A stretch of 64,000 nt of DNA from Patescibacteria group bacterium (GCA_041665365.1 JBAYIY010000006.1:19602-83601); one strand, 5' to 3'. Shown: positions 18,838 to 62,379, counted from the first letter of the stretch. Notes: generated by a model from the letters alone, not told the origin. Numbers and translations: made by a program.

Positions 18838-18855
18838 GTGATTATTATGTGTATG

Positions 18856-19468: not shown

Positions 19469-19514
19469 TTAAAAACAGTAGAGACATGCCATGGCATGTC
19501 TCTACTGTTTTTAA
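19469..19514. repeat. Family-A palindrome, 46 bp perfect (TTAAAAACAGTAGAGACATGCC|ATGGCATGTCTCTACTGTTTTTAA)
   Basis: Read directly. At the right edge of the GC-rich island. Confidence 0.9.
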
Positions 19515-19529
19515 TTGGGGAAGGTATGT

Positions 19530-39284: not shown

Positions 39285-39505
39285 CCTGCGGATAAGTTGT
39301 GCAGTGAGTGTGTGTGAAAAGTGTAATAAATTAAGCGGTAAAATTCATCCACTGGACATGCACAACTCTACACACAGTCTATTCCATCAACCAAGCAACA
39401 TATAATTCAACTATGTTAACACTAACTACCATTATCCACTTATTAACACCCCTTATTATTGTTATTATCTATTTATTTATATAATTTAATTAAGATACAG
39501 ATGTT
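39285..39505. promoter_or_regulatory. Candidate oriC (DnaA-box-like motifs plus AT-rich unwinding element) between dnaA and dnaN
   Basis: TTATCCACT, TCATCCACT and TTATCCGCA (as tgcggataa) box-like 9-mers, and the AT-rich stretch tattattgttattatctatttatttatataatttaatt. Confidence 0.5.
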
Positions 39506-46168: not shown

Positions 46169-46172
46169 AAAA

Positions 46173-47552
46173 TTATTTCTTATTACGGTTAGGGTTAATC
46201 AAAAAACCGGCTAGATCTCTGCGGCCAATCACCATGGGATGAGATAATTTATTATCCAAAGCGACCGCGACGGTACTAGTTAAACGGCGACCACCTAAAT
46301 CGAAAGCGAGCGGCAGTTTAGGGCGAATAAGATATTGACCCTCAGACCGAACCGCCGCCACATCTACCCAATCGGACTGGAGGGCTAATATTTTAGTGCG
46401 AAAATTATCTTCGGCGGCTTGAGCTCGATCAACGGCCACGCTAGCGGGTAGCTGCAGGGTTTGTATAGCTGCCAGTGCCTCCGTAAAACCTAATTTAATA
46501 GCGGTATCTTTTGTGATGGTGGTTGATGTTAAACCGGTATCAATGAGGGCACGTACCGGCATGGCTATAGCATTTTTACCCTGTACTGTAACCGGTTCAT
46601 AAATTCCCAAGACCGGATTCAACAGATCGCTTTCACCATCTTGTTTGGCGAATAACTGTTTGCAAACACTCAAGCCTTTAGTAGCACTGGTAATAGTTAA
46701 GCCAGCCACGCGGTCAAGCCGATCACGCAAGGTAATCCGATTGGCATTTTGAATCTCTAAACCAGGATGAGCATTAACTTCTAAAATCATCGGCCCATAC
46801 TGTTTATCTAAAACAATATCAACACCCGCATAACCTAAACCAACTGCCTTAGCTGCTTCAATGCTGATACGCAGAATATTATCCCAATCTGGAATTTTAA
46901 TATTACTCAGTGGTGTATTAAAATCTGGATGCAGACTGATTTGCCCCAATTGTTTAGCTGTCGCAAAGGTGGTCGTGCCATTAACTAAATCAACTCCAAC
47001 GCCAATGCCACCTAAATGCAAATTAGCTTTTCCGTCAGATTGCTTGGTCGGTAGCCGCAGCATGGCCATAACTGGAACTGAGTTAAACACTAATATTCGA
47101 ATATCCGGTACCCCTTGATATGAGACATTTTTAAATACCTCAGCTAACCGTAACCGCTCTTCACAGTAGGCGATATCAGGAATATTCGATAAAGAAAAGT
47201 TACCATCTAAAATATTACTGGTATGCCGCTGTAAATCGGCAATATCATAAACGTTTTCGCCGGTACTAATCCAGTGGCCTTGTTTATCTTTGCCATAGAG
47301 AATCACAATACCACCACCACCCAAACCGAAGTTTGGTTTCAAAACAAAGCTGCTCGGTAAACTTGACCAATCAAAATTAAATAATTCTTTACGATTTTTA
47401 ATAACGCCGAATAACTTAGCCGAAGGCAAACCGGCGGCAAATAATTTTTCTTTTGTGGCCAATTTGTTATTAGCCGTTTTGACGGCCTGACCACTGTTGT
47501 ATGGGTGGATGAATACCAAGTTTCTGGCATTCATACCGAGAACCTTGCCCAT
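46173..47552 (-). CDS. RimK-family ATP-grasp ligase (alpha-L-glutamate-ligase-like) fused to a C-terminal retropepsin-like domain
   Basis: N-terminal ATP-grasp pattern (LKPNFGLGGGGIVI..., EVNAHPGLE). C-terminus LIDTGLTSTTI...VIGRRDLAGFLINP matches the preceding gene. Confidence 0.65.
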   Translation of the reverse strand: MGKVLGMNARNLVFIHPYNSGQAVKTANNKLATKEKLFAAGLPSAKLFGVIKNRKELFNFDWSSLPSSFVLKPNFGLGGGGIVILYGKDKQGHWISTGENVYDIADLQRHTSNILDGNFSLSNIPDIAYCEERLRLAEVFKNVSYQGVPDIRILVFNSVPVMAMLRLPTKQSDGKANLHLGGIGVGVDLVNGTTTFATAKQLGQISLHPDFNTPLSNIKIPDWDNILRISIEAAKAVGLGYAGVDIVLDKQYGPMILEVNAHPGLEIQNANRITLRDRLDRVAGLTITSATKGLSVCKQLFAKQDGESDLLNPVLGIYEPVTVQGKNAIAMPVRALIDTGLTSTTITKDTAIKLGFTEALAAIQTLQLPASVAVDRAQAAEDNFRTKILALQSDWVDVAAVRSEGQYLIRPKLPLAFDLGGRRLTSTVAVALDNKLSHPMVIGRRDLAGFLINPNRNKK

Positions 47553-49117
47553 TAGGGTTGTTGTTTACCAATAAAAAGTTTGCGGAAGCGGAAGTATTCG
47601 ATGACGCGTAAACCGGAGAAGCGACCCAACACGATATTAATCACTAAAGTTAATAGAATCAATTCCGGATAACCCATTAACAAAGTCGAGAACTCATCCC
47701 AAGTGATAATCAAATAACTAATGATGGCCAGAGCTAAGGTTTCGGCCGTTAGAAAAATAGCTTGGCGATTACCTTGTTCAATTTGCACTTCAACAAACTT
47801 TTCTGTTAGCGTCATCATCACCAAGATCGGGAAAATAGAAATAGCTAAAATGTCAGTCTCACCATACAGGGCAGATAATATTAAGGCACCGAACAAAGTT
47901 ACACTGACAATGGTTAGAACAATGGCCATACGGGGTAAATACAAAATGCGTAACCGCCGCGCAGCGATCCGCGCTAGCGTAGCGGCCCCCAAGAGCAGCA
48001 AAAATGCCAAAACACCATATCTTAATCCGGTGATTGTAAAAGATAGCGTCATAACGGTGGGCACATATATACCAAAAGCCTTCACTCCCACCACTTGCCG
48101 ACCAAAGGAAATCAATGTCGCTACCACTGGTAAAGCCAGTAATAAAAATATTGTGTCCGAACCGACACCATTGTTGATCAAATAATTTACACCGTAGGAA
48201 ATAAAGTTAAACGGTGTAATCTGCTCCAAAGCGCGTTGGCTATGACGGCCGATCAATTGATAATCAATATTTTCTTGTTGTAGCCCTCCAACCAACTGGT
48301 CAACGGTCGGGTTAGCCAGAATAGATTCTAAAGCCGGCGGGGTAGTTAACATTATGTACTGTGGTACCAGCGCATTGTAAGTCGTTTGGGCGATACGGCC
48401 CAAAGCGCCACTACTAGGACGATCACTAATTTGGATGATGGCTTTTTGGGCAAAACTAATCATGCCTGACGTATCAGCTGAGCCACTACTGTTTAATATT
48501 CGACCCAACTCGGCGAGAGAATCTAATCCAATATTCTGCGCCGTCCAGACAATTACCACCTTGGCTTGAGAAATATCAGTTTCAGAAGATACTAACTGTT
48601 CAGCAATATTACGGGTTAGAACGTAATCTAAGTTTGAATCATTGCGCGGCCGAACTATTACTAACAAAGTACCATTACGTTGGGCATATTGGCGGTAGTA
48701 TCTAGCCTGATCACGACTGACGCTATCATCGGTAATAAGTAAAACGACATCTTTGGCGACAGAAACAAGTAAATCATCTCGTACCGTTTGATCGCCAGAG
48801 GTAATAGTTAAGTTGGCTTTATATGTACCGGATTGAGCATAAATATGAGACGCATCGATACCTTGAAAGCTTTGGCCATCACCAAAATCCCATTTATAGG
48901 TTAACGTGCTATCACTCGGGCCGCTGGAAGCGGATGCATCAAATAATACGTTTCGACCCACGGCCACGTTTTTATCCGGGCCAGCATTGGCAATTAATGG
49001 TGCTGGCGTAATTATTTCCTCTACTACACTGTCTGTTTGTGCTGACGTGAGTATCGGTACATACAAAAGTGCCGATAAAATAATGTATCTAGACATGTTT
49101 TTAGGCCAATGAAACAT
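47552..49117 (-). CDS. Secreted PKD-domain plus 7TM membrane protein (7TM/inactive-transglutaminase-like family associated with RimK operons)
   Basis: Signal peptide, PKD-like region (TYKWDFGDGQSF...GTYKANLTI), a roughly 170 aa extracytoplasmic domain, then seven predicted TM helices. Stop/start junction with the ATP-grasp gene. Confidence 0.45.
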   Translation of the reverse strand: MFHWPKNMSRYIILSALLYVPILTSAQTDSVVEEIITPAPLIANAGPDKNVAVGRNVLFDASASSGPSDSTLTYKWDFGDGQSFQGIDASHIYAQSGTYKANLTITSGDQTVRDDLLVSVAKDVVLLITDDSVSRDQARYYRQYAQRNGTLLVIVRPRNDSNLDYVLTRNIAEQLVSSETDISQAKVVIVWTAQNIGLDSLAELGRILNSSGSADTSGMISFAQKAIIQISDRPSSGALGRIAQTTYNALVPQYIMLTTPPALESILANPTVDQLVGGLQQENIDYQLIGRHSQRALEQITPFNFISYGVNYLINNGVGSDTIFLLLALPVVATLISFGRQVVGVKAFGIYVPTVMTLSFTITGLRYGVLAFLLLLGAATLARIAARRLRILYLPRMAIVLTIVSVTLFGALILSALYGETDILAISIFPILVMMTLTEKFVEVQIEQGNRQAIFLTAETLALAIISYLIITWDEFSTLLMGYPELILLTLVINIVLGRFSGLRVIEYFRFRKLFIGKQQP

Positions 49118-50141: not shown

Positions 50142-51137
50142 ATGCTCGATAGCCAAAACATGTTGTCATCAATTGATATGTTAGCCCAGCAAGTTAGTCA
50201 TGCCTGGAAGGATACAGCCAACTTACAATTATCGATTCCAACTAAATCGATTCAACAAGTAGTCTTGTTTGGTATGGGTGGTTCTGCTTTAGGTATGGAT
50301 GTAGTGCAACATTTATATACTGAACAGACTAAAGTACCTTTACTGATAGTTAATGACTATAAAGTACCTGGTTATATTAATGAACACACTTTAGCGATCT
50401 TTTCCAGCTATTCCGGCACAACCGAAGAAACGCTCATGGCCGCGAAAATTGTCCAACAACGCACCAAACATGTCGCCGTCATCACGACCGGTGGATCACT
50501 GGCGCAATTACCTGGGTATATTATCAACCCAACCTATAATCCCTGTGGGCAACCACGGATTGCCGTTGGTTATGCCGTCACTGGTTTGTTACGGATTTTA
50601 CAGCGTGCTGGAATTATTCAGATAACTGATCAGGACATAGACAATGCCATCCATTTTATTGATGGTAATCGGGAGCTATTAAATGATGCGGCCAAGGAAA
50701 CAGCGGAACGGTGTAAAAATAAATTATTACTTTTCATTGGGAGCGAACACTTACTGGGCAATGTTCATATTGTGACCAACCAAACCAATGAAAATGGCAA
50801 ACACTTTGCTGGATATTTTGCCATCCCAGAACTCAACCATCATTTATTAGAGGGTTTAAGCAATCCGGCTGCCACTAAACAATTACATCTGGTCTTGATT
50901 GAATCAAATTTATATCACGAGCGCGTACAAAAACGCTATGACATTACCAAGCAGGTCTTAGATAAACAGGGGATTAGTCATGAACAATTTATTACTACGG
51001 CCACCACCCCATTACAACAATCATTTGAAGTCTTACAATGGGGCAGTTATTTGAGCTTTTACATCGCGGCTGCGCACAACATTGATCCGTCGCCGATTCC
51101 ATGGGTAGATTATTTTAAACATGCGTTGGCTAAATAA
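50142..51137 (+). CDS. Bifunctional phosphoglucose/phosphomannose isomerase (SIS domain, archaeal type)
   Basis: 331 aa; two SIS-domain pattern (VLFGMGGSALG, SYSGTTEE). Confidence 0.6.
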   Translation: MLDSQNMLSSIDMLAQQVSHAWKDTANLQLSIPTKSIQQVVLFGMGGSALGMDVVQHLYTEQTKVPLLIVNDYKVPGYINEHTLAIFSSYSGTTEETLMAAKIVQQRTKHVAVITTGGSLAQLPGYIINPTYNPCGQPRIAVGYAVTGLLRILQRAGIIQITDQDIDNAIHFIDGNRELLNDAAKETAERCKNKLLLFIGSEHLLGNVHIVTNQTNENGKHFAGYFAIPELNHHLLEGLSNPAATKQLHLVLIESNLYHERVQKRYDITKQVLDKQGISHEQFITTATTPLQQSFEVLQWGSYLSFYIAAAHNIDPSPIPWVDYFKHALAK

Positions 51138-52650
51138 GCTTGGTCCAAGCGCAGTCTTAGGGTTAACCATTGGGCTGTTTATTTGGTATCAATCGATTCA
51201 GACTTTTCCTGACCCCGATGCGTATTATCATGCCAGACTTGCGGCTATCATGCTGCAATCTGGTCTGCCCACCACATTTCCCTGGCTGCCATTAACAACC
51301 TTATATCAACATTTTGCTGATCACCATTTACTGTATCATGTAGCCTTAATGCCCGCTGTGGCATTATTTGGTCCAATTATTGGGGTTAAATTAATGCAAG
51401 TTATATTTGCTAGTTTAGTGATAATTATTTGTTATTTTATTTTGCGCCGGTGGCATATTCCATACCAAGCCCCAGCTCTTTTGCTGTTACTTAGTAGTTA
51501 TCCCTTTCTAGTAAGGATTAATTTAGTAAAAGCTTCCGCCGTGGCGATTTGTTTATTTTTATTGATTCTATATTTTTTATTGCAAAAACGGTATGGGTTA
51601 GTAGGCATTCTAACACTAATTTACACGCTAACTCACGGTGGATTTATTTTAGCAGTGGTTTTAGCGACTGCCGTTTGGTCGGCCGACAGTATCGCCCAAA
51701 TATTTAAAGCAAAACAATATAAACCTATCTTACCAACGGGAATATTTGTTGTGTGGGCAGCCATCATTATTGGAATATTAATCAACCCATCGTTTCCAAA
51801 TAATCTGGCTTTTTTGTGGGCGCAAGTATTTCAGATTGGGGTGGTTAATTATCAGTCGGTGATCTCAGTTGGGGCGGAATGGTACCCATTTCCACTAACC
51901 GAATTAGTCGAAGCGATTAGTGTATTATTAATCGGTGTAGTGGCCACCATTCCAGTGTGGCTGAGGCAGTGGCGTAAAGTGTTAAGTGATGAAAAAGCGG
52001 TGTCTTTATTATTACTCACCCCAGTTTTTTTTATTTTAACTTTACGCTCACGCCGGTTTGTTGAATATTTTATCCCATTACTGTGGTTGTTGATTTGTTT
52101 ATTAGTGCTACCGGCTTGGCAGGCGGGCATTATTCAACCGGTTTGGCAAAGCATCACGCGCCGGCTTGGGCACTGGGCGAAGCTATTAAATATGTACATC
52201 GTAGTCACAACTATTGGTACAATCGTGATTGGTGTAATCGGGATCGGACGCAGTTTTTATCAAGCAAAACCAATTGATCGGTTTGCCCAAGCCGGTGCTT
52301 ATTTACAAAGTGTAGCCGAACCAAATGAAATAGTATTTCATGGGCGGTGGGATGACTTTCCGGCGCTATTTTATTATGCACCGAAAGCGTCATACATGGC
52401 TGGGCTTGATCCAACTTTCCTGTATTTAGCTGATAAAAATTTATATCAACACTGGAATGATATTGCCACGGGCAGGGCTAAACAACAAACGGCTAGTAAC
52501 ATCCGTGATTATTTTCAAGTGCGCTATGTTGTGGTAGATGAATCTGATTCACATACGCAATTAATGTTAGCTTATTTGTTGCGTGATAAAACCGCCAAGC
52601 TAGTTTTTCATCAGAAACCAATGGCAATTTTTAAATTAGTTGAATTATGA
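51121..52650 (+). CDS. Polytopic membrane protein, GT-C-fold glycosyltransferase-like (paralog 1)
   Basis: About 12 TM helices with a C-terminal soluble domain. First extracytoplasmic loop FPDPDAYYH (DxD-like). Shares blocks (RINLVKA, THGGFIL, FPNNL, AEWYPF, DDFPAL, GLDPTFLYLA) with the next gene. Confidence 0.4.
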   Translation: MRWLNKLGPSAVLGLTIGLFIWYQSIQTFPDPDAYYHARLAAIMLQSGLPTTFPWLPLTTLYQHFADHHLLYHVALMPAVALFGPIIGVKLMQVIFASLVIIICYFILRRWHIPYQAPALLLLLSSYPFLVRINLVKASAVAICLFLLILYFLLQKRYGLVGILTLIYTLTHGGFILAVVLATAVWSADSIAQIFKAKQYKPILPTGIFVVWAAIIIGILINPSFPNNLAFLWAQVFQIGVVNYQSVISVGAEWYPFPLTELVEAISVLLIGVVATIPVWLRQWRKVLSDEKAVSLLLLTPVFFILTLRSRRFVEYFIPLLWLLICLLVLPAWQAGIIQPVWQSITRRLGHWAKLLNMYIVVTTIGTIVIGVIGIGRSFYQAKPIDRFAQAGAYLQSVAEPNEIVFHGRWDDFPALFYYAPKASYMAGLDPTFLYLADKNLYQHWNDIATGRAKQQTASNIRDYFQVRYVVVDESDSHTQLMLAYLLRDKTAKLVFHQKPMAIFKLVEL

Positions 52651-54077
52651 AATGGTATGTGTGGCTGAGCATTGTGCTGCTGGCACTTGGTTTGTGCAGC
52701 TTACAAGGCACAGTTGTTTTTCCTGATCCAGATGCGTTTTACCATGTTGGCGTGGCCCAACATTTATGGGAGTTTGGCTTTGCTAAAACATTTTCCGGAT
52801 TGCAACCCACTACTTTAGGGCAACACTTTGTCGATCAGCATTTCTTATTACATTTTACCCTAGCACCATTTGTGTGGATGATGAGCCCTGGAGTTGGCAC
52901 CAAAGTATATATGGTAGTTGTAGTATTAGTCTGTTTAAGTGTCATGTCTTACATGCTATATTGGATCAAAGCACAGACTTGGTGGGTTGGAGTTATGCTT
53001 TTGGTAGCAACTAACGCCTGGTTATTTCGTATAAATTTAGTAAAGGCCACGCCGTTGGCTTTGATTTTGTTATTTTTATCACTGCTAGCTTTACAAACAA
53101 AAAAATATAAATGGTTACTGCTAATAGGTGGTCTCTATGTCTGGACACACGGTGGGTTTATTTTATTGCCCATTCTAGTTGGAGTTTGGAGCCTGTTAGC
53201 CAAACAATGGAAACCGGTCGCGTATGTATTATGTGGAATCAGTGTGGCTATTTTAGTCCACCCAGCCTTTCCAAATAATCTATTATTTTATTGGGAACAA
53301 CTTGTTCAAATCGGCGCAGTTAATTATCAAACTGTGATTGGGGTAGGAGGAGAGTGGTATCCCTATGAACCCGGTTCATTAGTATTTGGTCATACTATAA
53401 TTTTTTCCATTCTAATAATTAGTCTTGTCCTGCATGTCTTACAAAGACGTCCGTTTACTGTGGCGCAAATATGTTTTTCTATTTACACCGTAATATTTTT
53501 CATTCTCACATTAAAATCCAAAAGATACGTGGAATATTTTTCACCCATGTTAGCCTGCACAGCGGCATTGTATGTGCCAACGGTGATAAAATCAAAAGTA
53601 GAGACACACAATAAAGTAGAGACACGCCATGGCATGTCTCTACTTTTGATTCCCACGGCAATTATGATTGTTGTCCTGGTACCGGTTGTAATTCAAGAAA
53701 TTATTACCGCAAAAACTGATTTGCAATCTGGCCAAGCGTTAACCTATTTACATGGAGCCGGAGAATTTTTAGATACTTTACCACCAGGGCAAGTCGTTGC
53801 CCCCAGTGATTGGGATGATTTTCCAGCTCTGTGGCGAGCCGCACCACACCAACAATTTTTAATTGGATTAGATCCGACTTTTCTATATCTGGCTAATCCT
53901 ACTCGTTATGAAGCTTGGCGCGCCCTCACCTTAGGTGAAGACAATGATGTTGATACAGTAGGGGCAGATTATTATGTGGTAGCCAAAGACCATAAATCTA
54001 TGCATAAACATTTGGTAAAAATTGATGCCGTGACGGTTTATGAAGACGATGAGGCTTGGGTGTTAACAACCCCATAA
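52647..54077 (+). CDS. Polytopic membrane protein, GT-C-fold glycosyltransferase-like (paralog 2), with in-frame palindrome-encoded insert
   Basis: Same conserved blocks as paralog 1. Residues KSKVETHNKVETRHGMSLLLIP are encoded by a family-A palindrome at 53594..53648. Confidence 0.4.
   Translation: MKWYVWLSIVLLALGLCSLQGTVVFPDPDAFYHVGVAQHLWEFGFAKTFSGLQPTTLGQHFVDQHFLLHFTLAPFVWMMSPGVGTKVYMVVVVLVCLSVMSYMLYWIKAQTWWVGVMLLVATNAWLFRINLVKATPLALILLFLSLLALQTKKYKWLLLIGGLYVWTHGGFILLPILVGVWSLLAKQWKPVAYVLCGISVAILVHPAFPNNLLFYWEQLVQIGAVNYQTVIGVGGEWYPYEPGSLVFGHTIIFSILIISLVLHVLQRRPFTVAQICFSIYTVIFFILTLKSKRYVEYFSPMLACTAALYVPTVIKSKVETHNKVETRHGMSLLLIPTAIMIVVLVPVVIQEIITAKTDLQSGQALTYLHGAGEFLDTLPPGQVVAPSDWDDFPALWRAAPHQQFLIGLDPTFLYLANPTRYEAWRALTLGEDNDVDTVGADYYVVAKDHKSMHKHLVKIDAVTVYEDDEAWVLTTP
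53594..53648. repeat. Family-A palindrome (one mismatch) with partial tandem duplication, inserted in-frame in a CDS
   Basis: aaagtagagacaca + aaagtagagacacgccatggcatgtctctacttt. Confidence 0.85.
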
Positions 54078-54148: not shown

Positions 54149-54559
54149 TCAACCAGTACTGACTGAACTGGCACCGGTGAAGTTTAACAAATTGTTAATC
54201 ACATACACAGATACGCCCCAACCAGCCAAAATGATAACTAAACCAATCAAAGCAGCGTAGAGAGTTTTCTTCGCTCCTTCGACTTTTTCTTCATTACCAC
54301 CGGCTGTCATCCAACGGAAACCACCGACTAAAATTAAAACAACTGCGATTAAGGCAAGAATACCCAAAACCCAGTTAATAACACTAATCACCAAAGCTTC
54401 TGGGCTAGCATTGCCTAGAATCATGGCATCAGTGATGCCGGTATTGTCTAACTGATCGACTGTTAACGAGCTAGCGTTGGTGGCCGCAGCAGTTAACATA
54501 CCCACGGCACCTATTCCAAGATAGGCGAAACGGGTGACTGTACTTTTGAACTTATTCAT
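54149..54559 (-). CDS. Secreted pilin-like protein with C-terminal two-TM hairpin module (family member 1)
   Basis: Signal peptide, then INWVLGILALIAVVLILVGGFRWMTAGGNEEKVEGAKKTLYAALIGLVIILAGWGV. Confidence 0.55.
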   Translation of the reverse strand: MNKFKSTVTRFAYLGIGAVGMLTAAATNASSLTVDQLDNTGITDAMILGNASPEALVISVINWVLGILALIAVVLILVGGFRWMTAGGNEEKVEGAKKTLYAALIGLVIILAGWGVSVYVINNLLNFTGASSVSTG

Positions 54560-54667
54560 AGTGTTCTTTAAGTATTAAATTAATTATTAATGGAACTATA
54601 CATAGATTAAACGATTTTGTAAAGACTAGGTTGACTTCTCGGGAATTGTAATGGTAAAGTACACACC

Positions 54668-54982
54668 ATGAAACGCTTGGCTTTTAGTTTGGAGTTCGAT
54701 TCAGATAAAACGCTGCAAACCTATACGAAGCTTGGAAATACCGATCCGGTATCCATTGTGTTCACAATTGTAAATACAGCCTTAGTATTTTTAGGTGTAG
54801 TAACATTAGTACTTATTATAGTGGCTGGCTTCTTATGGCTAACGGCCGGTGGTAATGAAGAACAAATTAAAAAATCCAAAGACATTATGAAAGGTGCTGT
54901 GATTGGTTTGGTGATAGTGTTAGGTTCCTACGGTATTGCTCAATATCTCTTTACCGCCATTCAATTAGCCACTACTAGTTAA
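54668..54982 (+). CDS. Pilin-like two-TM hairpin module protein (member 2, no obvious leader)
   Basis: VNTALVFLGVVTLVLIIVAGFLWLTAGGNEEQIKKSKDIMKGAVIGLVIVLGSYGIAQYLF. Confidence 0.5.
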   Translation: MKRLAFSLEFDSDKTLQTYTKLGNTDPVSIVFTIVNTALVFLGVVTLVLIIVAGFLWLTAGGNEEQIKKSKDIMKGAVIGLVIVLGSYGIAQYLFTAIQLATTS

Positions 54983-54985
54983 TTT

Positions 54986-55387
54986 ATGCACATACGTTTA
55001 CCTCTATTATTATCGTCACTGACCATCATGGTTGGTGTAACATTAAGCTCTATATCAGTAGATGCCGCGAGTATTTCAATCGACCCATTAGGAGGTACTG
55101 AGTTTTACGGCAGTCTAAGTGATACTGGTTTAGGTACAGCCGATCCGGTCACGGTAGCGTCACAGATTGTGAATGTGTTCTTACGTTTGTTAGGAGCCAT
55201 TACCGTTATGTTAATGATTTACGGTGGTTGGACATGGATTTGGGCGCGTGGTAATCAAGAAGAGGTTACCAAAGCCAAAGAAATTATTACCGGTGCTGTA
55301 ATTGGCCTAGTGATTGTACTGGCATCATTTGGTATTATGCAATATCTGTTTTATTATTTGACCAAAATTACCAATGCGGTTAAGTAG
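54986..55387 (+). CDS. Secreted pilin-like two-TM hairpin module protein (member 3)
   Basis: Signal peptide, then IVNVFLRLLGAITVMLMIYGGWTWIWARGNQEEVTKAKEIITGAVIGLVIVLASFGIMQYLF. Confidence 0.55.
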   Translation: MHIRLPLLLSSLTIMVGVTLSSISVDAASISIDPLGGTEFYGSLSDTGLGTADPVTVASQIVNVFLRLLGAITVMLMIYGGWTWIWARGNQEEVTKAKEIITGAVIGLVIVLASFGIMQYLFYYLTKITNAVK

Positions 55388-56228
55388 ATGGATTTTTTTG
55401 GTTTGTTTGCTAGTAGCGCCAGTTTGGGTTAGAGCCGCCGATGCACCCTCTGACACTGAAATTGAAATGAGCGCCGGTTCTACTTCTGCCACAGCTGGTG
55501 TACAATTTGATCCGTCAAAAAATATTATTGGTAATCCGGATAATGATCAAAAATTATCAGTTGGATCAGTTTTGAGATTAACTTATTTATCCGGTGCATC
55601 AGATCCGTTATCTATTACCATCAATGTAATAAATGTGGCTTTAAGTTTTTTAGGATTAACATCATTAATAATGATGTTATATGCAGGATTAAAGTGGTTT
55701 TTTGCTCGGGAAAATGAGGAAGAAGCCACCAAGGCCAAAGAGATTATTATTGGTGCCGTGATCGGCTTGGTCATTACACTGGGGTCGTACGGTATTGTAC
55801 AACTATTATTTAGTCAATTTACAATTGCTACAGCATTTATCAAATCGATCATTCCGATAGCTTATGCTGATAGCGGAGTGACAATAGAACCAGCGACATT
55901 GCCATTTGATCCAAGTAAGGCCTCTGGTGGCTATGTGGCCGTAACTAGGGCAAGCTTAGTGCCAATTACAGGCATTAATTTAGGAAAAACTGATCCTTTA
56001 TCTGTAACCATTAATGTGGTTAATATTTTACTATCATTATTAGCCACTGCCTTTTTGGGTTTGATGTTGTATACTGGTGGTGTGTGGGTTTGGGCACGAG
56101 GTAACGAAGAAATAATCTTGCGGGCGCGGGATACATTGTTTCGGGCTGTGCTCGGGTTAGTTATTGTGCTCGGAGCATACGGCATTGCTGAATTAGTGTT
56201 TACTTTAATTAGTCAGCAAACAACCTAA
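55374..56228 (+). CDS. Secreted protein with two tandem pilin-like hairpin modules (member 4)
   Basis: Module a: NVALSFLGLTSLIMMLYAGLKWFFARENEEEATKAKEIIIGAVIGLVITLGSYGIVQLLF. Module b: VNILLSLLATAFLGLMLYTGGVWVWARGNEEIILRARDTLFRAVLGLVIVLGAYGIAELVF. Confidence 0.55.
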   Translation: MRLSRWIFLVCLLVAPVWVRAADAPSDTEIEMSAGSTSATAGVQFDPSKNIIGNPDNDQKLSVGSVLRLTYLSGASDPLSITINVINVALSFLGLTSLIMMLYAGLKWFFARENEEEATKAKEIIIGAVIGLVITLGSYGIVQLLFSQFTIATAFIKSIIPIAYADSGVTIEPATLPFDPSKASGGYVAVTRASLVPITGINLGKTDPLSVTINVVNILLSLLATAFLGLMLYTGGVWVWARGNEEIILRARDTLFRAVLGLVIVLGAYGIAELVFTLISQQTT

Positions 56229-56234
56229 TTTATT

Positions 56235-56639
56235 ATGATGCGAAGAATAATATTAAGTGGTTTTATCCTATTAGTTAGTGCCCAACAGACACTGGCAGTT
56301 GGTTTTCTGCCAACCAATGATGATACTGGGTTGCTAAACACAACAGCTTCAAACTCATTAGCCTTAGGGAAAGCTCAACCAACCACAGTGGCGTTAAATC
56401 TAATAAATGCCGGACTGTCATTGTTGGCGGCGGTGTGCGTGGGGTTATTAATTTATGCTGGGTTCTTATGGGTGTGGGCCAGGGGAAATACAGAAGAAGT
56501 AAAAAAAGCCAAAGATATTCTCACTGGTACAGTACTTGGTTTAATTGTAATATTGGCGTCATTGGGAATAACTCGATTTGTGTTTACGACAGTAGGAAAC
56601 ATTACCGGCGCAACCATCGTTAATAACGCATCTGAATAA
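56235..56639 (+). CDS. Secreted pilin-like two-TM hairpin module protein (member 5)
   Basis: LINAGLSLLAAVCVGLLIYAGFLWVWARGNTEEVKKAKDILTGTVLGLIVILASLGITRFVF. Confidence 0.55.
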   Translation: MMRRIILSGFILLVSAQQTLAVGFLPTNDDTGLLNTTASNSLALGKAQPTTVALNLINAGLSLLAAVCVGLLIYAGFLWVWARGNTEEVKKAKDILTGTVLGLIVILASLGITRFVFTTVGNITGATIVNNASE

Positions 56640-56648
56640 GATACATAT

Positions 56649-57026
56649 ATGATAAAAAAAATATCCTCAATCTTAATAACTAGTTCATTAATCGCATTGC
56701 CGTTGTTATCACTGGCTGAATATACTCCACAAGCCGTGGTGTTCGATCCAAACTCAAATGTGGAAAGAAACACTGGTTTAGGAAACGCTACACCAGGTGG
56801 TATTGCCGCCGGCGTAATTAATTGGGTATTGGGTATACTAGCCTTACTAGCGATTTGTTTAGTAATTTACGGTGGAATTTTATGGATGACATCGGCCGGC
56901 AATGAGGAACAAGTGAAAAAAGCCAAAGATATACTTTTTGGTGCGTTAATTGGCGTGGTAATTATTTTAGCATCCTATGGTGCTACCCAATATGTCTTTA
57001 CGAACCTGGTCGATATTACTACTTAA
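56649..57026 (+). CDS. Secreted pilin-like two-TM hairpin module protein (member 6)
   Basis: VINWVLGILALLAICLVIYGGILWMTSAGNEEQVKKAKDILFGALIGVVIILASYGATQYVF. Confidence 0.55.
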   Translation: MIKKISSILITSSLIALPLLSLAEYTPQAVVFDPNSNVERNTGLGNATPGGIAAGVINWVLGILALLAICLVIYGGILWMTSAGNEEQVKKAKDILFGALIGVVIILASYGATQYVFTNLVDITT

Positions 57027-57390
57027 CTTTTTATTAGTTGGTGTTTTACCAATTATTCCGGCGTTGGCTTATGAACAGCGGCCGTTGGATTATTATCAAA
57101 ATGATATTCAGGTCAATACCGGCTTAGGTGGCTATGATAATGTTGGTAGTGAAGGGCCAGTGGAGACAGCCTCGCGGGCAATCAATATATTACTTGGTTT
57201 ACTAGGTACATTAACTTTGTGTTTAGTTATTTACGCCGGCTTTTTGTGGATGACAGCACAAGGTAATGAGGAACAAGCCAAAAAAGCCAAAGATATTTTA
57301 TCTGGTGCTGTGATTGGAATAGTCATCATTCTCGCCTCCTACGGAATAACCAATTACGTTTTTAGGAGTTTAGTGAATATCACAAACTAA
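56977..57390 (+). CDS. Secreted pilin-like two-TM hairpin module protein (member 7)
   Basis: AINILLGLLGTLTLCLVIYAGFLWMTAQGNEEQAKKAKDILSGAVIGIVIILASYGITNYVF. The start probably lies at an internal Met (MSLRTW...), given the overlap with member 6. Confidence 0.5.
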   Translation: MVLPNMSLRTWSILLLNFLLVGVLPIIPALAYEQRPLDYYQNDIQVNTGLGGYDNVGSEGPVETASRAINILLGLLGTLTLCLVIYAGFLWMTAQGNEEQAKKAKDILSGAVIGIVIILASYGITNYVFRSLVNITN

Positions 57391-57408
57391 CACTACAAAT
57401 AATAAGCC

Positions 57409-57437
57409 AAATATCTGTAGTAGTACTACAGATATTT
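57409..57437 (+). terminator. Perfect palindromic hairpin (AAATATCTGTAGTA|GTACTACAGATATTT) after the pilin-like gene run
   Basis: Read directly, 17 nt after the stop codon. Confidence 0.4.
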
Positions 57438-57471
57438 TGATAAAATTCTGTAGTTTCACTAAATTAATCTT

Positions 57472-57568
57472 CCCGGAATACACCTCCCCAACCCTCCTAT
57501 TCTAGGAGGGAGCAAGAAATAATCTAATTCTTTATCTTACCCTTCCTACAATAGGAAGGGTGCTCGAG
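57472..57568 (-). mobile_element. About 100 bp MITE-like repeat element, copy 2 (inverted relative to copy 1 at 9019)
   Basis: Reverse complement aligns along nearly its whole length with 9019..9116, including both internal hairpins and the aagataaagaa spacer. Confidence 0.7.
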
Positions 57569-57678
57569 TCCGCGAGGGCGGGATGGTGTTCTGAGATTCA
57601 AGACTTCAAGTTGACAGTACTGATTTTTATTGATAACCTTTATCAATAAAGAGCGCCACCTAAGATTGGGGCGCTTTT

Positions 57679-58050
57679 ATGTATATACGATCGTCGAATC
57701 GAAATATTCTTCAATATGATCAGAAGCTTAGATGGATTGCAAAATCATTGAGAAAAAATGCTACAGAAGCTGAACGGTTACTCTGGCAAGAATTACGATC
57801 CAGAAAACTTGGTTACAAGTTTAGACGTCAACATGCACTCCATGGTTACATTGTTGATTTTTATTGTTACGCAAAAATGTTAGTAATTGAAGTTGATGGA
57901 TCTATTCATGATGCTAAAATAGATCATGATCGCTCAAAAGATGACATTTTAAAATTAAACGGTTTCAAAGTGATTCGGTTCACAAATGAAGCAGTTATAT
58001 ACCATCTCACAGAAGTCACAAATACCATACAGCATTATCTAGCTCAATAA
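57679..58050 (+). CDS. DUF559 (Vsr-like / restriction-endonuclease-fold) domain protein
   Basis: LWQELRSRKLGYKFRRQHALHGYIVDFYCYAKMLVIEVDGSIHD...KDDILKLNGFKVIRFTNEAV, the typical DUF559 pattern. Bracketed by copies of the ccttcctacaataggaagg hairpin. Confidence 0.7.
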   Translation: MYIRSSNRNILQYDQKLRWIAKSLRKNATEAERLLWQELRSRKLGYKFRRQHALHGYIVDFYCYAKMLVIEVDGSIHDAKIDHDRSKDDILKLNGFKVIRFTNEAVIYHLTEVTNTIQHYLAQ

Positions 58051-58098
58051 ATGCTCCTGCTCCCTTCCTACAATAGGAAGGGCTGGGGATGGTGTACT
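58050..58098. repeat. Partial copy of the MITE-like element (ctcccttcctacaataggaagggctggggatggtgtactc)
   Basis: Shares the hairpin and the ggctgggga(t)ggtgt tail with copy 1. Confidence 0.65.
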
Positions 58099-58725
58099 CT
58101 AAGCCCCCGTCGCTGTTTGGAATATACTAAACGTGAAACTGAGTAAGGCGTAGCTAGCTAGCACTACGGCTAATCCAATTACTGCCCAAATTAGTATTTT
58201 TTTGCCTTTAGTGACCATTTCTTCATTTCCATGGGAAAAGATTAAATTCATTCCGCCCCACACAAACATCAACAAAGCTAGTGAACCAACAATACCCAAT
58301 AATATTTGAATAAGAATCGCAATTATTACGGTGATAGAGGCTTGTGATGTTGAACCAAACGGTGGTTTCAAGAAAGTAGGTTTTGTAACGGAAGTGGGTG
58401 TAGTTGGCGTTGTAGTAGTGGTAGTAGTCGTTGGACTAATTGTACAAGAACTACACGTGGTATCGCATGCAGAAGTATCATTAAGTGGATCACACTTATC
58501 AGTATAACATGCAGTTAGATCGAATGTTGGATCGAAACTGGGATCGGTCGGGTCAAGATCTAAAGCGTCGCAGGTAGCTTCACAGGACGCTACTTCTGCC
58601 GCTGCTTTATCTTCACATTTATTCAGACAATCTTTGCATTCGTCAGCCTGTACGGGTGCTTTTGGTACGCCAAGCAACACAACTACTAGGCTTAATAAAA
58701 GTGGAAACAAGAATTTGTATGGCAT
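58099..58725 (-). CDS. Secreted Cys-rich / poly-Thr protein with C-terminal pilin-like hairpin module (member 8, subfamily 2)
   Basis: Signal peptide, Cys-rich region (ECKDCLNKCEDK...CDTTCSSC), TTTTTTTPTTPTS linker, then QILLGIVGSLALLMFVWGGMNLIFSHGNEEMVTKGKKILIWAVIGLAVVLASYALLSF. Confidence 0.5.
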   Translation of the reverse strand: MPYKFLFPLLLSLVVVLLGVPKAPVQADECKDCLNKCEDKAAAEVASCEATCDALDLDPTDPSFDPTFDLTACYTDKCDPLNDTSACDTTCSSCTISPTTTTTTTTPTTPTSVTKPTFLKPPFGSTSQASITVIIAILIQILLGIVGSLALLMFVWGGMNLIFSHGNEEMVTKGKKILIWAVIGLAVVLASYALLSFTFSIFQTATGA

Positions 58726-58735
58726 GGTCTTACAA

Positions 58736-59086
58736 TTAAGCGCCGGAGGCGGTTTTTAATATTCCAAAAACGAAGCTGGTTAGGGCATAGGCACTTAAAA
58801 CAATCACTAAACCAATGGTTGCCCAGATGAGAGTACTTTTCCCTTTTTTGAGATTTTCTTCATTACCACCGGAAAACACCATGTGTAATCCACCCCAAAT
58901 AAACATTAACAAAGCCCCAGAACCAACTATGCCGAGTAATACTTGAATAATAATGGCTATAACGGTTGTAATGGTGACACTGGCAGCATCACCAACTGGC
59001 GAGAAACCGGTGTCGGTAGCCAAGGTGATCAGTGGAACCAAGAAACCAATAGATGTAATTAATATGGGTGGTAGTTTGGATTTCAT
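58736..59086 (-). CDS. Secreted pilin-like two-TM hairpin module protein (member 9, subfamily 2)
   Basis: IQVLLGIVGSGALLMFIWGGLHMVFSGGNEENLKKGKSTLIWATIGLVIVLSAYALTSFVF. Confidence 0.55.
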   Translation of the reverse strand: MKSKLPPILITSIGFLVPLITLATDTGFSPVGDAASVTITTVIAIIIQVLLGIVGSGALLMFIWGGLHMVFSGGNEENLKKGKSTLIWATIGLVIVLSAYALTSFVFGILKTASGA

Positions 59087-59889
59087 TTTAGTTTGGCACA
59101 GATTGTATCAGGTTTCGCACACGTTACCGTAGTATTAAAATCGTACTTAGTATTACTTTTTACTGTAGTTGCATCAACACAGTCATATCCTGTATGACCT
59201 TCAAGGACAAATTGTTGACAACCATCTATACAAGCACATTGATTCTTCGTATTTTTAGTGGAATCTTTAATCAGACTCATATCGGTTGTATCTTCACCGC
59301 TACATTTTACATCGGCTGTTGTATTAGCACGCCAACAATAACAAGTTGGATCTTTTATATTTTTACATGTGCCTATGCTGCACTTATCACTAATATTATG
59401 AGTCATACACTGTGCCGGTGCTGGTGGATTGCAGGCGCCAAGATCCCACCAGTTGTTACTGAATACTTTGGTGGTGGAAGTCCCGCCGGATAGGGCGGCA
59501 GCGCGGACAATAATATTAACTGCCAACCAGGCAATAAACACAATGGCTAAACCGGTCACCGTACCAATTAATATTTTTTTGCCGGTTTCAACGCGGGTTT
59601 CAACACCGGCTGAAAAAATCAACATGAGTCCACCGGCCACAAACATCAATAAGGCCAAACCTCCCAAGATACTGGCAATCAAGTTAGCGGCATTTACGAA
59701 GACACGAGTGATATCACAAATATCGCAACCACCGGCATCTTGGCATTCTTTTGGAACAATATTTATCCAACTGCTAGGGCTACTGGTGGTAGCGGTAGTC
59801 GGCACTTGAGCTAGAGCTGTCTGAGATAATCCAAAAACAAAAAAAACTGAGCCAGTAACAAGTAAACAGAATCTGGAAAACTTATTCAT
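59083..59889 (-). CDS. Secreted protein with N-terminal pilin-like hairpin module and C-terminal Cys-rich domain (member 10, subfamily 2)
   Basis: ANLIASILGGLALLMFVAGGLMLIFSAGVETRVETGKKILIGTVTGLAIVFIAWLAV, followed by a roughly 130 aa domain with many Cys (CMTHNISDKCSIGTCKNIKDPTCYCW...). Confidence 0.5.
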   Translation of the reverse strand: MNKFSRFCLLVTGSVFFVFGLSQTALAQVPTTATTSSPSSWINIVPKECQDAGGCDICDITRVFVNAANLIASILGGLALLMFVAGGLMLIFSAGVETRVETGKKILIGTVTGLAIVFIAWLAVNIIVRAAALSGGTSTTKVFSNNWWDLGACNPPAPAQCMTHNISDKCSIGTCKNIKDPTCYCWRANTTADVKCSGEDTTDMSLIKDSTKNTKNQCACIDGCQQFVLEGHTGYDCVDATTVKSNTKYDFNTTVTCAKPDTICAKLK

Positions 59890-61252
59890 AGGTTAATTCT
59901 ACCTTACTGGCGGTATTTTCAACAGCGGTGAGAATATCTAATCGGCCAGCGTTAACAATATCAATCATATCGGCAAAAGCCTGCTCGGTTTCGGCTGGTT
60001 TTTTGCCCGCATACCAGCTTTGGGCAGTTAAAGTTTCGTTAGCAAAGACAGCTAGATCAAAATTGTCTTTTTGGCTCTCCAATAAACTGCGTAGAGCGGT
60101 TGGTTTTGGATTTTTATCAAGCATGGCTTTTACATTCGTCTCAGAAGTAGTTAGAGCCTGAATAAAAGCCCAAGATTCATTGGGGTGAGCTGAGTTTACC
60201 GACACAGACTCTAACCAGTAGTTGGCGTAATTAATAGCGGTCAGCGGGTCAGCCGTTACTTGTGGAACCGGAGCGATGCCGATATCAAGTTGATCACCAC
60301 TATTTTTCATGGAGTCTTTATTGTAGTAATAACCAAAGTAATAGACTAATTTACCGGCTAAAAATTGTTCTAAAGCATCGGGCTGATCTTTATTCCAGCT
60401 GTACCAATCAACGGCTGGGTTAGCAAAACTGGTATAAAAATCTACGGCTTGAACACCGGGGGTGACTTCATCATTGCGGTTCTCACCTTGAGCAAATGTC
60501 ACATTAGTTCCCGAACTCATAGTGGCGCCATTTTGCATCATCAAAAGCGAAACAATATCAAACATTCTTGGAACGTTTTCGCTGGTACCCAAAGCTGCGC
60601 CAGCTTGAATAATATTGTCATTGACGTCAGTTAGGGTAAGTTGGGGTACCTGTTTAACGAAATCATCCCAAGTAGTGGCTGGTTGTGGAATATTCGCCGC
60701 ATCTAGTAGTGTTTTGTTGTAGTACAATACCAATGTATCCATACTTAACGGTAAACCATACACTTGACTAGTACCAGTGGCACTAGATTTAACCACATCA
60801 TCGTATACTACTTGTGGGAATAATACGTTTACATCTTGAGCAGTAGTTCCTTTCAATGCTTCACTCGCTACGACGGTATTTTTTTGGCCAAGTGATTGTG
60901 TCACAGTGACGGACGTTAATTTTAATGAGCTAGGCATTGGCGAAATCAGGTTTTGAAATGAGCCAATATGACTATTGGGTACAGAAAACATATCTGGTCC
61001 TTTACCCTGCGCCCACGCCTCGATAAGCTTACCTTCATATTCATCTTGCCGGAAGGTTTTTATTTCAACAGAGATATAAGGATATTTAACAGCAAAAGCA
61101 TCGATGACTGGTTGAATATCTTCACTCGATGTGTAAACTGTCCAGTACTCTAAAGTAAACGGAGCCGGTTGTGTACCAGAACCGCGGCAAACGGCGCCAC
61201 TTGAGATTAACCAAACGCACATTAAACTTAAACCAATCAGCGAGCGTTTCAT
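59882..61252 (-). CDS. ABC transporter extracellular solute-binding protein (family 1, sugar-type), lipoprotein
   Basis: Lipobox-like N-terminus (LISSGAVC), 456 aa, periplasmic binding protein pattern. Confidence 0.65.
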   Translation of the reverse strand: MKRSLIGLSLMCVWLISSGAVCRGSGTQPAPFTLEYWTVYTSSEDIQPVIDAFAVKYPYISVEIKTFRQDEYEGKLIEAWAQGKGPDMFSVPNSHIGSFQNLISPMPSSLKLTSVTVTQSLGQKNTVVASEALKGTTAQDVNVLFPQVVYDDVVKSSATGTSQVYGLPLSMDTLVLYYNKTLLDAANIPQPATTWDDFVKQVPQLTLTDVNDNIIQAGAALGTSENVPRMFDIVSLLMMQNGATMSSGTNVTFAQGENRNDEVTPGVQAVDFYTSFANPAVDWYSWNKDQPDALEQFLAGKLVYYFGYYYNKDSMKNSGDQLDIGIAPVPQVTADPLTAINYANYWLESVSVNSAHPNESWAFIQALTTSETNVKAMLDKNPKPTALRSLLESQKDNFDLAVFANETLTAQSWYAGKKPAETEQAFADMIDIVNAGRLDILTAVENTASKVELTYE

Positions 61253-61254
61253 GG

Positions 61255-62379
61255 TTAATACTGTAGCAAATTTAGCAATTTTTTAAAAGCCGGATGTTGT
61301 TTAGCGGCGTCTAAATCTGCTAAACGTTTAATTGGCCAAAACCGTTGTAACCGGTTAACCAACACATATTGCGATGGCAGATCAACATCACAGGCAAAAC
61401 GTTCGAGTTGAATCACGTTACCCTCAGTGATAGTTTTTTCAGCCAGCACCCAAGGCAGGTCGTTATCAAATTTTAGTAAATCAGATAATGTAAACCAAAA
61501 AGTATTTGTGTTTAGCCAAGGAAGGGCGGCATAATCAAAATCTGGCGGAAATTTCATTTGTTCAACAATGGTCATTTTACCATCTACTAAGCACGGCACA
61601 CCACCTTGATCAGCAGCTGATTTGTCTACTATCTCAACGGTTCGCCCGAGCTGACTTTTAATATGTTGTCCTAGTAGAACAACATCTAATGTAGCAGCAA
61701 TATTATCAATGTTAGAAAAAAATAAATATTTTACATTTGGAATTTGTTCATGTGCTAAATAATCACGCAACAGGTAAACGAAATCACCGTGGCCACAAGG
61801 CGCCCAGGATAATTTTCCTTGTTGGTCAACAAACACATCAATGTCTTCACGCACAGCGGTGTTGGTAAAGCGCGGGATATGTTCTTGCTGCACAACAAAA
61901 TGAATGCGCGTTGGATCAAGCGCAGAATATTTTTTATACAACATGTCTAAATGTTCACGGGTTGGTTGATCAGTTACAAAACTGTTCATGATTACAACCG
62001 GTGGATGACTTGCTAGGTGATGAGTTTTAGTTACTCTTAATAAATCAAGTATCTTTAACTCTAAATAACTAATGTCATCAATTACTGGGCTAACACCCTT
62101 AGCTAGATTTGAACCATATCTGGTAGCGGCGCCGCCGTTTAACCAGAATAATAATAACTCATCATGTTTTAGAGCGGTTATACCAATGTTACTAGAACCA
62201 GCATCATATTGGACAATATTTTTTGGCTCCGGAACCAGTAATTGAGTAGGCGATAACACAAAACTCGTCTGATCTAGTTCACCGGACTGTAGTTTAATAT
62301 GTAAGGCTTTAATGTGAGCCGGATCAACCCCTTTAGTCAGTAATTGTTGTTTAATTTCAGCCTGATCTATATGCAACAT
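61255..62379 (-). CDS. UDPGP-family UTP--sugar-1-phosphate uridylyltransferase-like protein
   Basis: WLNGGAATRYG resembles the LNGGLGT.MG nucleotide-binding loop of eukaryotic-type UDP-sugar pyrophosphorylases. Confidence 0.55.
   Translation of the reverse strand: MLHIDQAEIKQQLLTKGVDPAHIKALHIKLQSGELDQTSFVLSPTQLLVPEPKNIVQYDAGSSNIGITALKHDELLLFWLNGGAATRYGSNLAKGVSPVIDDISYLELKILDLLRVTKTHHLASHPPVVIMNSFVTDQPTREHLDMLYKKYSALDPTRIHFVVQQEHIPRFTNTAVREDIDVFVDQQGKLSWAPCGHGDFVYLLRDYLAHEQIPNVKYLFFSNIDNIAATLDVVLLGQHIKSQLGRTVEIVDKSAADQGGVPCLVDGKMTIVEQMKFPPDFDYAALPWLNTNTFWFTLSDLLKFDNDLPWVLAEKTITEGNVIQLERFACDVDLPSQYVLVNRLQRFWPIKRLADLDAAKQHPAFKKLLNLLQY

Follow-up and report, generated by a model that had tools for sequence, protein, structure and literature searches.

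Arrays of genes for type IV secretion system (T4SS) pilins have been described from Patescibacteria. In a search of 3,035 genomes of this group with the families PF18895 (T4SS_pilin) and PF04956 (TrbC/VirB2), Quinonero-Coronel et al. (2025; PMC12102498) found 441 arrays of 2-11 pilin genes in 383 assemblies, the genes standing in tandem or with one non-pilin gene between them. Paralogues of an array are on average 25% and at most 54% identical, T4SS genes often lie near dnaA, and a pilin gene is located near virB4 in 1,135 and away from it in 813 (about 40%) of 1,948 assemblies; the paralogues were suggested to help adaptation to different hosts. In Ca. Southlakia epibionticum ML1, an essential array of six pilin genes forms part of the T4SS cluster (Wang et al. 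2023; PMC10633639). PF18895 has furthermore been reported to dominate among the domains of freshwater-specific structure (protein) clusters, and a review of 2025 (PMC12857230) refers to a pilus in these monoderms as an 'intriguing possibility'. Here, a ten-gene array of the PF18895 family is analyzed, which is located at positions 54149-59889 of a stretch of 64,000 nucleotides from a Patescibacteria group bacterium (GCA_041665365.1, JBAYIY010000006.1:19602-83601). This stretch, at its full length, is called the window.

The array belongs to the published class, and the existence of such arrays is not new. The definition used in the literature (at least two PF18895 or PF04956 genes in a patescibacterial genome, with at most one non-pilin gene between them) covers the ten genes of the window and the single DUF559 gene by which they are interrupted. 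With the arrays of PMC12102498 and PMC10633639 and with the 'Sec-secreted array' of TM7x (Ca. Nanosynbacter lyticus) the locus shares the PF18895 family, the tandem order and the occasional non-pilin interruption; a low identity of the paralogues, a chromosomal site near dnaA, the lack of a relaxase and the size (ten genes, within the range of 2-11) are also common to it and the published patescibacterial arrays. Unlike these, however, neither the array of the window nor 80 related loci adjoin virB4 or other T4SS genes, and the array is part of an operon with genes for a UDP-sugar pyrophosphorylase and an orphan solute-binding protein (SBP). This operon and the evidence for a fixed heteromer are the main additions to what is contained in the accessible parts of PMC12102498, PMC10633639 and PMC12857230. 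In those parts, positional orthology, gene fusion and neighbouring GT-C glycosyltransferase genes are not mentioned in PMC12102498 or PMC10633639, nor is the order nucleotidyltransferase-SBP-array in PMC12102498. Taken as a whole, the data are best explained by VirB2-like pilins that would be assembled by a T4SS, with the paralogues as distinct subunits of a heteromer, an explanation which is held here with moderate confidence.

Modules of the array and their relation to VirB2

The array consists of the following genes, six on the plus and four on the minus strand. Gene numbers given for orthologues refer to syntenic arrays of relatives (loci L006 to L009, see below).

54149-54559, minus strand: p1, 136 aa, with signal peptide, variable region and hairpin; PF18895 42.1 bits; transmembrane (TM) segments 60-78 and 103-121
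54668-54982, plus strand: p2, 104 aa, no signal peptide; PF18895 30.9 bits; first gene of the operon p2-p7; orthologue is gene 2
54986-55387, plus strand: p3, 133 aa; PF18895 35.2 bits; orthologue is gene 3 in L006 and L007
55374-56228, plus strand: p4, 284 aa, two hairpin modules (4 TM segments) and a predicted external linker of about 60 aa; two PF18895 matches
56235-56639, plus strand: p5, 134 aa, pilin-like by PF18895, module model and orthology
56649-57026, plus strand: p6, 125 aa, pilin-like by PF18895, module model and orthology
56977-57390, plus strand: p7, 137 aa, pilin-like by PF18895; annotated from 56992 onwards, with 132 aa, in public gene calls
57679-58050, plus strand: DUF559 gene (Vsr-like endonuclease fold; PF04480, E 3e-33), interrupting the array
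58099-58725, minus strand: p8, 208 aa, with a predicted external N-terminal Cys-rich region and a poly-Thr region; PF18895 44.9 bits
58736-59086, minus strand: p9, 116 aa, no extra domain; PF18895 45.7 bits
59083-59889, minus strand: p10, 268 aa, with signal peptide, hairpin and a predicted external C-terminal Cys-rich domain of about 140 aa; PF18895 27.8 bits

The number of ten open reading frames (ORFs) with 11 hairpin modules, which had been given in an initial annotation made from the sequence alone, was confirmed by the ORF listing of the window, by PF18895 and by a hidden Markov model (HMM) of the modules. The single ORF with two modules, also predicted there, is p4, in which both methods detected two domains. 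Its count of seven genes on the plus and three on the minus strand had to be corrected. To build the HMM, the modules were cut as 76-aa segments anchored on the charged loop; these align without gaps at pairwise identities of 22-64%. In the six-frame translation of the 64-kb window all 11 modules were recovered with domain E-values of 1e-34 to 7e-25 (3e-33 and 3e-31 for the two modules of p4), and there was no twelfth one, the next-best match having an E-value of 0.6. The value of 7e-25 belongs to p10, whose PF18895 score is barely over the cut-off. A divergent subfamily carrying extra domains had been proposed as well. This description fits p8 and p10 with regard to the domains, but p9 possesses none and the loop of p10, AGVETRVETGKK, is devoid of the GNEE motif.

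Kyte-Doolittle scans revealed two hydrophobic segments per module and, in nine of the ten proteins, an N-terminal hydrophobic leader (p2 being the exception), in line with the earlier statement that most copies follow a signal peptide. The helical hairpin for which a structure prediction had been recommended was indeed obtained with p7: its AlphaFold2 model, calculated from 102 aligned sequences, shows a leader helix (residues 8-23), a disordered stretch (24-60) and two hairpin helices (61-92 and 98-136) with a predicted local distance difference test (pLDDT) value above 90. On inspection, the leaders are of the AXA type. Neither a class-III leader nor a match to PF07963 was found in the ten proteins, which thus do not qualify as type IVa pilins, as anticipated, or as type IVb pilins. 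The Lys-rich loop between the helices agrees with the positive-inside rule. The extra domains are all rich in Cys or Thr and all lie on the predicted outer face.

Membership of the module in PF18895 is established. All ten proteins exceed the gathering score of this family (27.8-45.7 bits compared to 26.6 bits), and its architecture of a leader and two hydrophobic helices joined by a short loop is supported by hydropathy and by the model of p7, except for the missing leader of p2. The best NCBIfam match for nine of the ten proteins is NF045849 (Mbov_0395, a pilin-like conjugal transfer protein of integrative and conjugative elements (ICEs) of Mycoplasma), with E-values of 3e-9 to 3e-4 and coverage of nearly the whole 80-position model, although the scores of 20.6-36.3 bits are all below the cut-off of 40 bits; for p10 the NCBIfam scan gave no match to it. 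The Mycoplasma proteins likewise belong to wall-reduced or monoderm hosts. They are, however, encoded in single copy on a mobile element together with VirB4 and a type IV coupling protein (T4CP), while the array of the window is embedded in chromosomal housekeeping genes. PF04956 was matched by two proteins with 15.0-15.1 bits (E about 0.03; threshold 27.9 bits) and not by the other eight. Six database homologues carry precomputed annotations of both PF18895 and PF04956.

A profile of the family from the candidate phyla radiation (CPR) was compared by hhalign with a VirB2 profile built from 35 sequences of the Agrobacterium/Rhizobium type. The two align in register over 66 columns (P 8.3e-4, probability 24%), spanning the whole hairpin from the 'DP' just ahead of helix 1 to the end of helix 2. 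When the family profile was run against all PDB sequences, the Agrobacterium tumefaciens VirB2 (8cue) was one of just two sequences picked up, in the same register and with a non-significant E-value of 4.6. The order of leader, helix, short loop and helix, the 'DP' motif before helix 1 and an aromatic W-M/F before the loop are all features which the module has in common with the VirB2/TrbC/TraA pilins (PF04956; T-pilus 8cue, RP4 and F pili). On the other hand, the loop of the window proteins is about eight residues longer and of mixed acidic and basic character (GNEE..KKAK), compared to the short basic loop of the classical pilins. The window proteins belong to a monoderm and give no sign of cyclisation or of a TraF-type peptidase, and the classical pilins are not known to form large sets of paralogues or fused multi-module chains or to carry large appended domains. 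Descent of the module from VirB2/TrbC is plausible on these grounds. The initial interpretation as T4SS pilins stands with regard to family membership, whereas the formation of a pilus is inferred only.

It might be argued that an unrelated family of small membrane proteins (holins, bacteriocin immunity proteins or c-ring-like proteins) merely has the same hairpin shape, since fold searches yielded nothing but generic helical hairpins. Yet scans against Pfam, NCBIfam and PHROGs did not reveal a significant match to any holin, immunity or phage family, PHROGs giving one weak match of unassigned function, and the consistent matches were solely to pilin and conjugal transfer families. Signal peptides and large external Cys-rich domains are, moreover, unfit for holins or immunity proteins. 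A mere resemblance of this kind is therefore considered extremely improbable.

Conserved paralogues and fused modules in relatives

Related loci were collected by a scan of one genome per species, from which 80 loci with 10 kb of flanking sequence on each side were kept, all from genomes other than that of the window. The best match of the window among them is 51% identical. Fifty-two loci are arrays with 3-14 module-bearing genes, and 27 contain one or two mostly giant proteins (about 650-3,500 aa) with a single module each. Four loci (L006-L009) are syntenic with the window. Compared to L006, p1 to p7 correspond to genes 1 to 7 in the same order; gene 8 is the counterpart of both p8 and p9, and gene 9 that of p10. 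The identity of these orthologues amounts to 43-70%, while the best paralogue of p1-p7 within the array reaches 46-53%. For p1, which is monocistronic and divergent from p2, the orthologue is gene 1 in all four syntenic arrays (59-75% identity). The counterpart of p4 is one two-module gene in L006 and L009, and two adjacent separate genes in L007. p8 and p9 are 61-65% identical to each other and match one and the same gene in L006 and L007; judged by these sequences, p8 is a recent, lineage-specific duplicate of p9. The orthologues of p2 in L006, L007 and L009 possess a leader of about 25-30 aa that is missing from p2, whose start falls almost exactly on the expected signal peptide cleavage point of these proteins. 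By this comparison, p2 has lost its leader and must either insert without one or be encoded by a decaying gene.

In most pairs of orthologues the hairpin is 60-90% and the external parts are 31-67% identical. Paralogues of the array do not share any DNA tract beyond about 76 nt at 72% identity, and short tracts of about 70% identity are confined to conserved coding parts. Recent gene conversion between paralogues was ruled out, as long DNA repeats do not occur. One-to-one positional orthologues across genera together with the lack of shared DNA tracts indicate that the diversity of the paralogues is old and fixed and does not reflect ongoing variation. The initial annotation, in contrast, had deduced a variable surface structure from the size and diversification of the array, a suggestion that is not supported by these data.

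Fusions of modules were found by an exhaustive profile search of databases for the PF18895-type module (90,413 representative clusters at 50% identity, E <= 1e-3). Single polypeptides with 2-17 tandem modules are common. Three fused proteins were inspected and proved to be regular chains of hairpins with GGNEE/KK loops. P0396 (1775 aa) contains 17 hairpins, P0423 (1147 aa) 11, P0356 (820 aa) 8 and P0355 (552 aa) 6. The fused chains reach 34 TM helices and resemble fused arrays. The paralogues are thus old, individually conserved and, in the case of neighbours, repeatedly fused. As far as can be judged from sequence, this pattern favours distinct subunits that assemble together over alternative variants.

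The opposite possibility, that the paralogues are interchangeable and serve as alternative major subunits of a homopolymeric pilus, for host range or for evasion of hosts or phages, has been put forward for Patescibacteria (PMC12102498), with the VirB2 paralogues known from Bartonella and Anaplasma as the model. The virB2 clusters in the effector T4SSs of Bartonella and Anaplasma phagocytophilum indeed also comprise several divergent tandem copies in host-associated organisms with a reduced genome. Moreover, the faster divergence of the external parts than of the hairpin and the lineage-specific duplication of p8/p9, in which one copy has a new external region, would suit such variants. However, the copies of Bartonella and Anaplasma belong to PF04956, occur in diderms and are thought to serve antigenic variation, whereas the paralogues of the window keep their positions from genus to genus, an observation that speaks against variation. 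Not only their order but also their copy number and identity are maintained across genera, and recombination or gene-conversion tracts were not detected. By ORF spacing, the plus-strand genes form one tight operon (p2-p7), so that their co-expression is probable, and the fusion of neighbours in some lineages would be senseless for mutually exclusive copies. Interchangeable variants are for these reasons regarded as improbable.

The giant proteins of the relatives often occur as adjacent pairs of about 650-1,000 aa and 1,500-3,500 aa, each with one PF18895 module. Such pairs are present in L010 (6109-17960), L012, L013, L025, L033, L039, L042, L045, L047, L050, L062, L073, L074, L076 and others; in L010 the module of the larger protein lies near its N-terminus. 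In at least six loci the pair is directly followed by a large protein (887-1,366 aa) belonging to a cluster of ten members. The representative of this cluster, L074:15443-19543 with 1,366 aa, contains a Walker A motif and is not matched by any Pfam family. Around the giant pairs, synteny with RelA/SpoT, HisRS, signal peptidase S26, RuvB and QueA is conserved.

Secretion partners and sugar-linked neighbours

Protein family scans did not detect VirB4, VirB6 or a T4CP in the window, as had been noted before, nor in 10 kb further to the left and 3.4 kb further to the right, by which about 77 kb of the 87.6-kb ENA contig were covered. At the 80 related loci, the scanned cluster representatives of the non-pilin ORFs of at least 450 aa within 10 kb on either side, including every one with a Walker A motif, did not contain a T4SS ATPase either; RuvB, Mfd, FtsH, EngA, PNPase, RelA, HisRS, an amidase, a recombinase and a P-type ATPase were identified, and the rest, among them the 1,366-aa protein of L074, had no Pfam match. 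The arrays of this clade are not clustered with a secretion ATPase. Clustering of pilin genes with virB4 is not obligatory, as about 40% of the published assemblies (PMC12102498) are also without it.

Instead, genes related to sugars are found next to the array:

59882-61252, minus strand: orphan SBP of 456 aa, divergent member of the SBP_bac_1 family; overlaps the start of p10 by 8 nt
61255-62379, minus strand: gene of the UTP-glucose-1-phosphate uridylyltransferase family (PF01704, E 1.4e-37), 2 nt upstream of the SBP gene
51121-52650, plus strand: polytopic membrane protein of 509 aa, no Pfam family
52647-54077, plus strand: paralogous polytopic membrane protein of 476 aa, no Pfam family

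The SBP itself has no Pfam match, but PDB maltose- and oligosaccharide-binding proteins were matched with E-values of 1e-7 to 1e-5 and its homologue L065:3903-5270 matches PF01547 (SBP_bac_1) with an E-value of 1.5e-28. Homologues adjoin the array in 33 of the 52 array loci; the 27 loci with giant or single proteins all lack one. Every copy is oriented like the pilin gene nearest to it, 27 of 34 at a distance of no more than 100 nt, and the first pilin after the SBP, p10 in the window, is typically large (median 223 aa compared to 155 aa overall). An ABC permease was not found near the SBP at any of the 33 loci.

The uridylyltransferase gene is the probable first gene of the minus-strand operon. 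In 18 loci, a sugar-1-phosphate nucleotidyltransferase of PF00483 is encoded directly upstream of the SBP, while in the window, L006 and L008 this position is occupied by the non-homologous UDP-glucose pyrophosphorylase of PF01704. Hence, the order nucleotidyltransferase, SBP, pilins is present in at least 21 loci (18 with PF00483 and 3 with PF01704), among them L014, L040, L044, L054, L056, L057, L059, L063, L065, L077 and L079, and in the window its intergenic gaps are only -8, -4, 2 and 10 nt. Since two unrelated families supply the same kind of enzyme, the association points to a functional link and not merely to an inherited gene order.

The two membrane proteins on the other side of the array are encoded in an operon with glucose-6-phosphate isomerase (PGI; 50142-51137). 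The AlphaFold2 model of the 476-aa protein (pLDDT 93.4, predicted template modelling score 0.92) matches STT3, AglB, PglB and ArnT with E-values of 5e-8 to 2.5e-4 and TMq values of 0.57-0.67. Motifs of the family, DPD in the first external loop, EWYP and WD.FP, are invariant or nearly so. Both proteins are therefore predicted, from the model, to be GT-C glycosyltransferases of the oligosaccharyltransferase (OST)/ArnT type. Their homologues adjoin arrays in nine loci and belong to an unannotated family that extends across the CPR and comprises more than 145 database clusters. Genes for GT28/monogalactosyldiacylglycerol (MGDG) synthase-like proteins, GT2 proteins, Wzy_C and flippases also recur near the arrays of the 80 loci.

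In the explanation favoured here, each product of the array would enter the membrane by way of Sec/YidC and lose its AXA-type leader to signal peptidase I. The two helices would then span the cytoplasmic membrane as a hairpin that exposes the N-terminal variable region and the C-terminus to the outside and the loop G-N-E-E-x-V-K-K-A-K to the cytoplasm. By analogy with VirB2/TraA and with the genetics of Southlakia, a monoderm-type T4SS (VirB4, VirB6, VirB3) whose genes would lie in another part of the genome may recruit this membrane pool and build from it a pilus-like or conduit structure at the contact with a host bacterium. The ten paralogues would be distinct, non-interchangeable subunits of one heteromeric assembly, the body of which would come from the small genes, while p8 and p10 would display their Cys-rich and Thr-rich external domains. 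The locus would be co-expressed with the orphan sugar-binding protein and the UDP-sugar-forming enzyme. It is conceivable, though speculative, that subunits or a packed lipid are glycosylated or that the structure serves the capture of sugars.

Several points weigh against this explanation. Besides the lack of T4SS genes in the scanned part of the contig and of a T4SS ATPase among the representatives scanned at the related loci, the link to VirB2 is statistically weak (hhalign probability of 24%, PDB profile E-value of 4.6), the loop differs from that of VirB2 in length and charge, and fold searches do not discriminate, as thousands of generic helical hairpins such as ATP synthase subunit c or designed hairpins are matched. 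Neither PMC12857230 nor PMC10633639 demonstrates, in the accessible parts, a pilus or another assembled structure for any PF18895 protein. Up to 17 fused hairpins are awkward for the classical extraction of pilins one subunit at a time, and in this clade the arrays are linked to SBP and sugar metabolism genes instead of T4SS genes. With regard to glycosylation, N-X-S/T sequons are only marginally enriched in the external parts (12 versus 7.3 +- 2.3, P 0.04), and this result was not used as evidence.

There is one main rival explanation, to which the data are better suited than to variant subunits. Here, the hairpin is an anchor or oligomerisation unit of an envelope module independent of a T4SS, which would form a ring or platform in the membrane to hold the external domains, without any VirB4-driven extraction. 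Together with the SBP and the glycosylation enzymes it could constitute a surface glycoprotein layer or a device for the capture or uptake of sugars. The position of the arrays apart from T4SS ATPases would be readily understood, as would their tight linkage to sugar-related genes, namely the SBP gene at 33 of 52 loci, sugar nucleotidyltransferase genes at 18 plus 3 loci, and genes of the GT28, GT2, GT-C and Wzy_C families. So would the chains of up to 17 hairpins and the giant single-module proteins of relatives (650-3,500 aa), in which external domains can be longer than 3,000 aa. By contrast, the array of Saccharibacteria lies within the T4SS cluster and shares its essentiality (PMC10633639), a pilin gene is found near virB4 in the 1,135 of 1,948 assemblies mentioned above (PMC12102498), members of the family occur as conjugal transfer proteins on Mycoplasma ICEs (NF045849), and the SBP loci are devoid of a permease-like partner. 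An envelope module of this type is thus a possibility to be reckoned with, even though it is judged unlikely.

Genomic setting and biological significance

By sequence comparison, Candidatus Kerfeldbacteria are the named organisms with the closest counterparts of the pilins and of the genes next to them, and p7 is 100% identical to NCBI WCV88_03825 from a metagenome-assembled genome (MAG) named 'Patescibacteria group bacterium'. On this basis, the host of the array is assigned to Kerfeldbacteria-like Patescibacteria. Dozens of obviously patescibacterial MAG contigs of the genome collection are titled 'uncultured Gammaproteobacteria bacterium', and a few are listed as Acutalibacteraceae or Vicinamibacterales; these names are placeholders or binning errors and not taxonomy. 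The window, and with it the array, belongs to ordinary chromosome and contains dnaA (37884-39284), dnaN, yidC and genes for a PilT-like ATPase, penicillin-binding protein 1 (PBP1), TyrRS, RuvC, YebC, IF-2, NusA, trigger factor, H+-PPase and eight tRNAs. The distance of about 15 kb between dnaA and the array agrees with the published location of T4SS-related genes near the origin.

On either side of the DUF559 gene lies a perfect 21-nt palindromic repeat, CCCTTCCTACAATAGGAAGGG (57540-57560 and 58062-58082); the gene is absent from the syntenic array L006. The segment 57540-58082 looks like a small mobile insertion between both pilin operons. Further features of the window are:

34845-35906, minus strand: PilT-like T2SSE ATPase, adjoining yidC and dnaA/dnaN (37884-40609, plus strand)
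45689-49117, minus strand: PKD-domain protein with 7TM_transglut, PF14397 'sugar-transfer associated' ATP-grasp and Zn-dependent protease-like protein; this cluster is also present in L006
16057-16683, minus strand: fragment of an IS200-like Y1 transposase
17106-18560, plus strand: class I/II aminotransferase
16770-16833, 18788-18842 and 19469-19512: long palindromes

The last three entries lie within a stretch (16000-19600) with a G+C content of 51%, compared to about 41% elsewhere, and with overlapping ORFs on both strands. Ribosomal RNA was rejected as the source of the high G+C content at 16-20 kb, as no Rfam rRNA match was obtained with either the gathering score or the E-value mode. The stretch is probably a horizontally acquired island.

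Patescibacteria account for much of the diversity of bacteria and live in attachment to other cells. Their T4SS-like genes, a pilin array among them, proved essential in the single species that has been tested. The comparative results presented here provide testable constraints on what the 'pilins' build or transport and direct experiments towards heteromer composition, glycosylation and sugar binding. Positional orthologues, fusions of 2-17 hairpins and giant single-module proteins suggest, as a tentative and rather doubtful extension, that the PF18895 arrays of the large branch of Kerfeld-, Magasanik-, Falkow- and Uhrbacteria-like organisms form a fixed multi-subunit envelope structure that is genetically uncoupled from VirB4 and tied to the orphan oligosaccharide-binding protein, the UDP-sugar pyrophosphorylase and OST/ArnT-like, GT28 and Wzy_C enzymes, possibly a glycosylated or protein-glycolipid fibre or conduit for the capture or import of host sugars. 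If this is true, such a sugar-capturing envelope structure would be a new use of the VirB2 fold.

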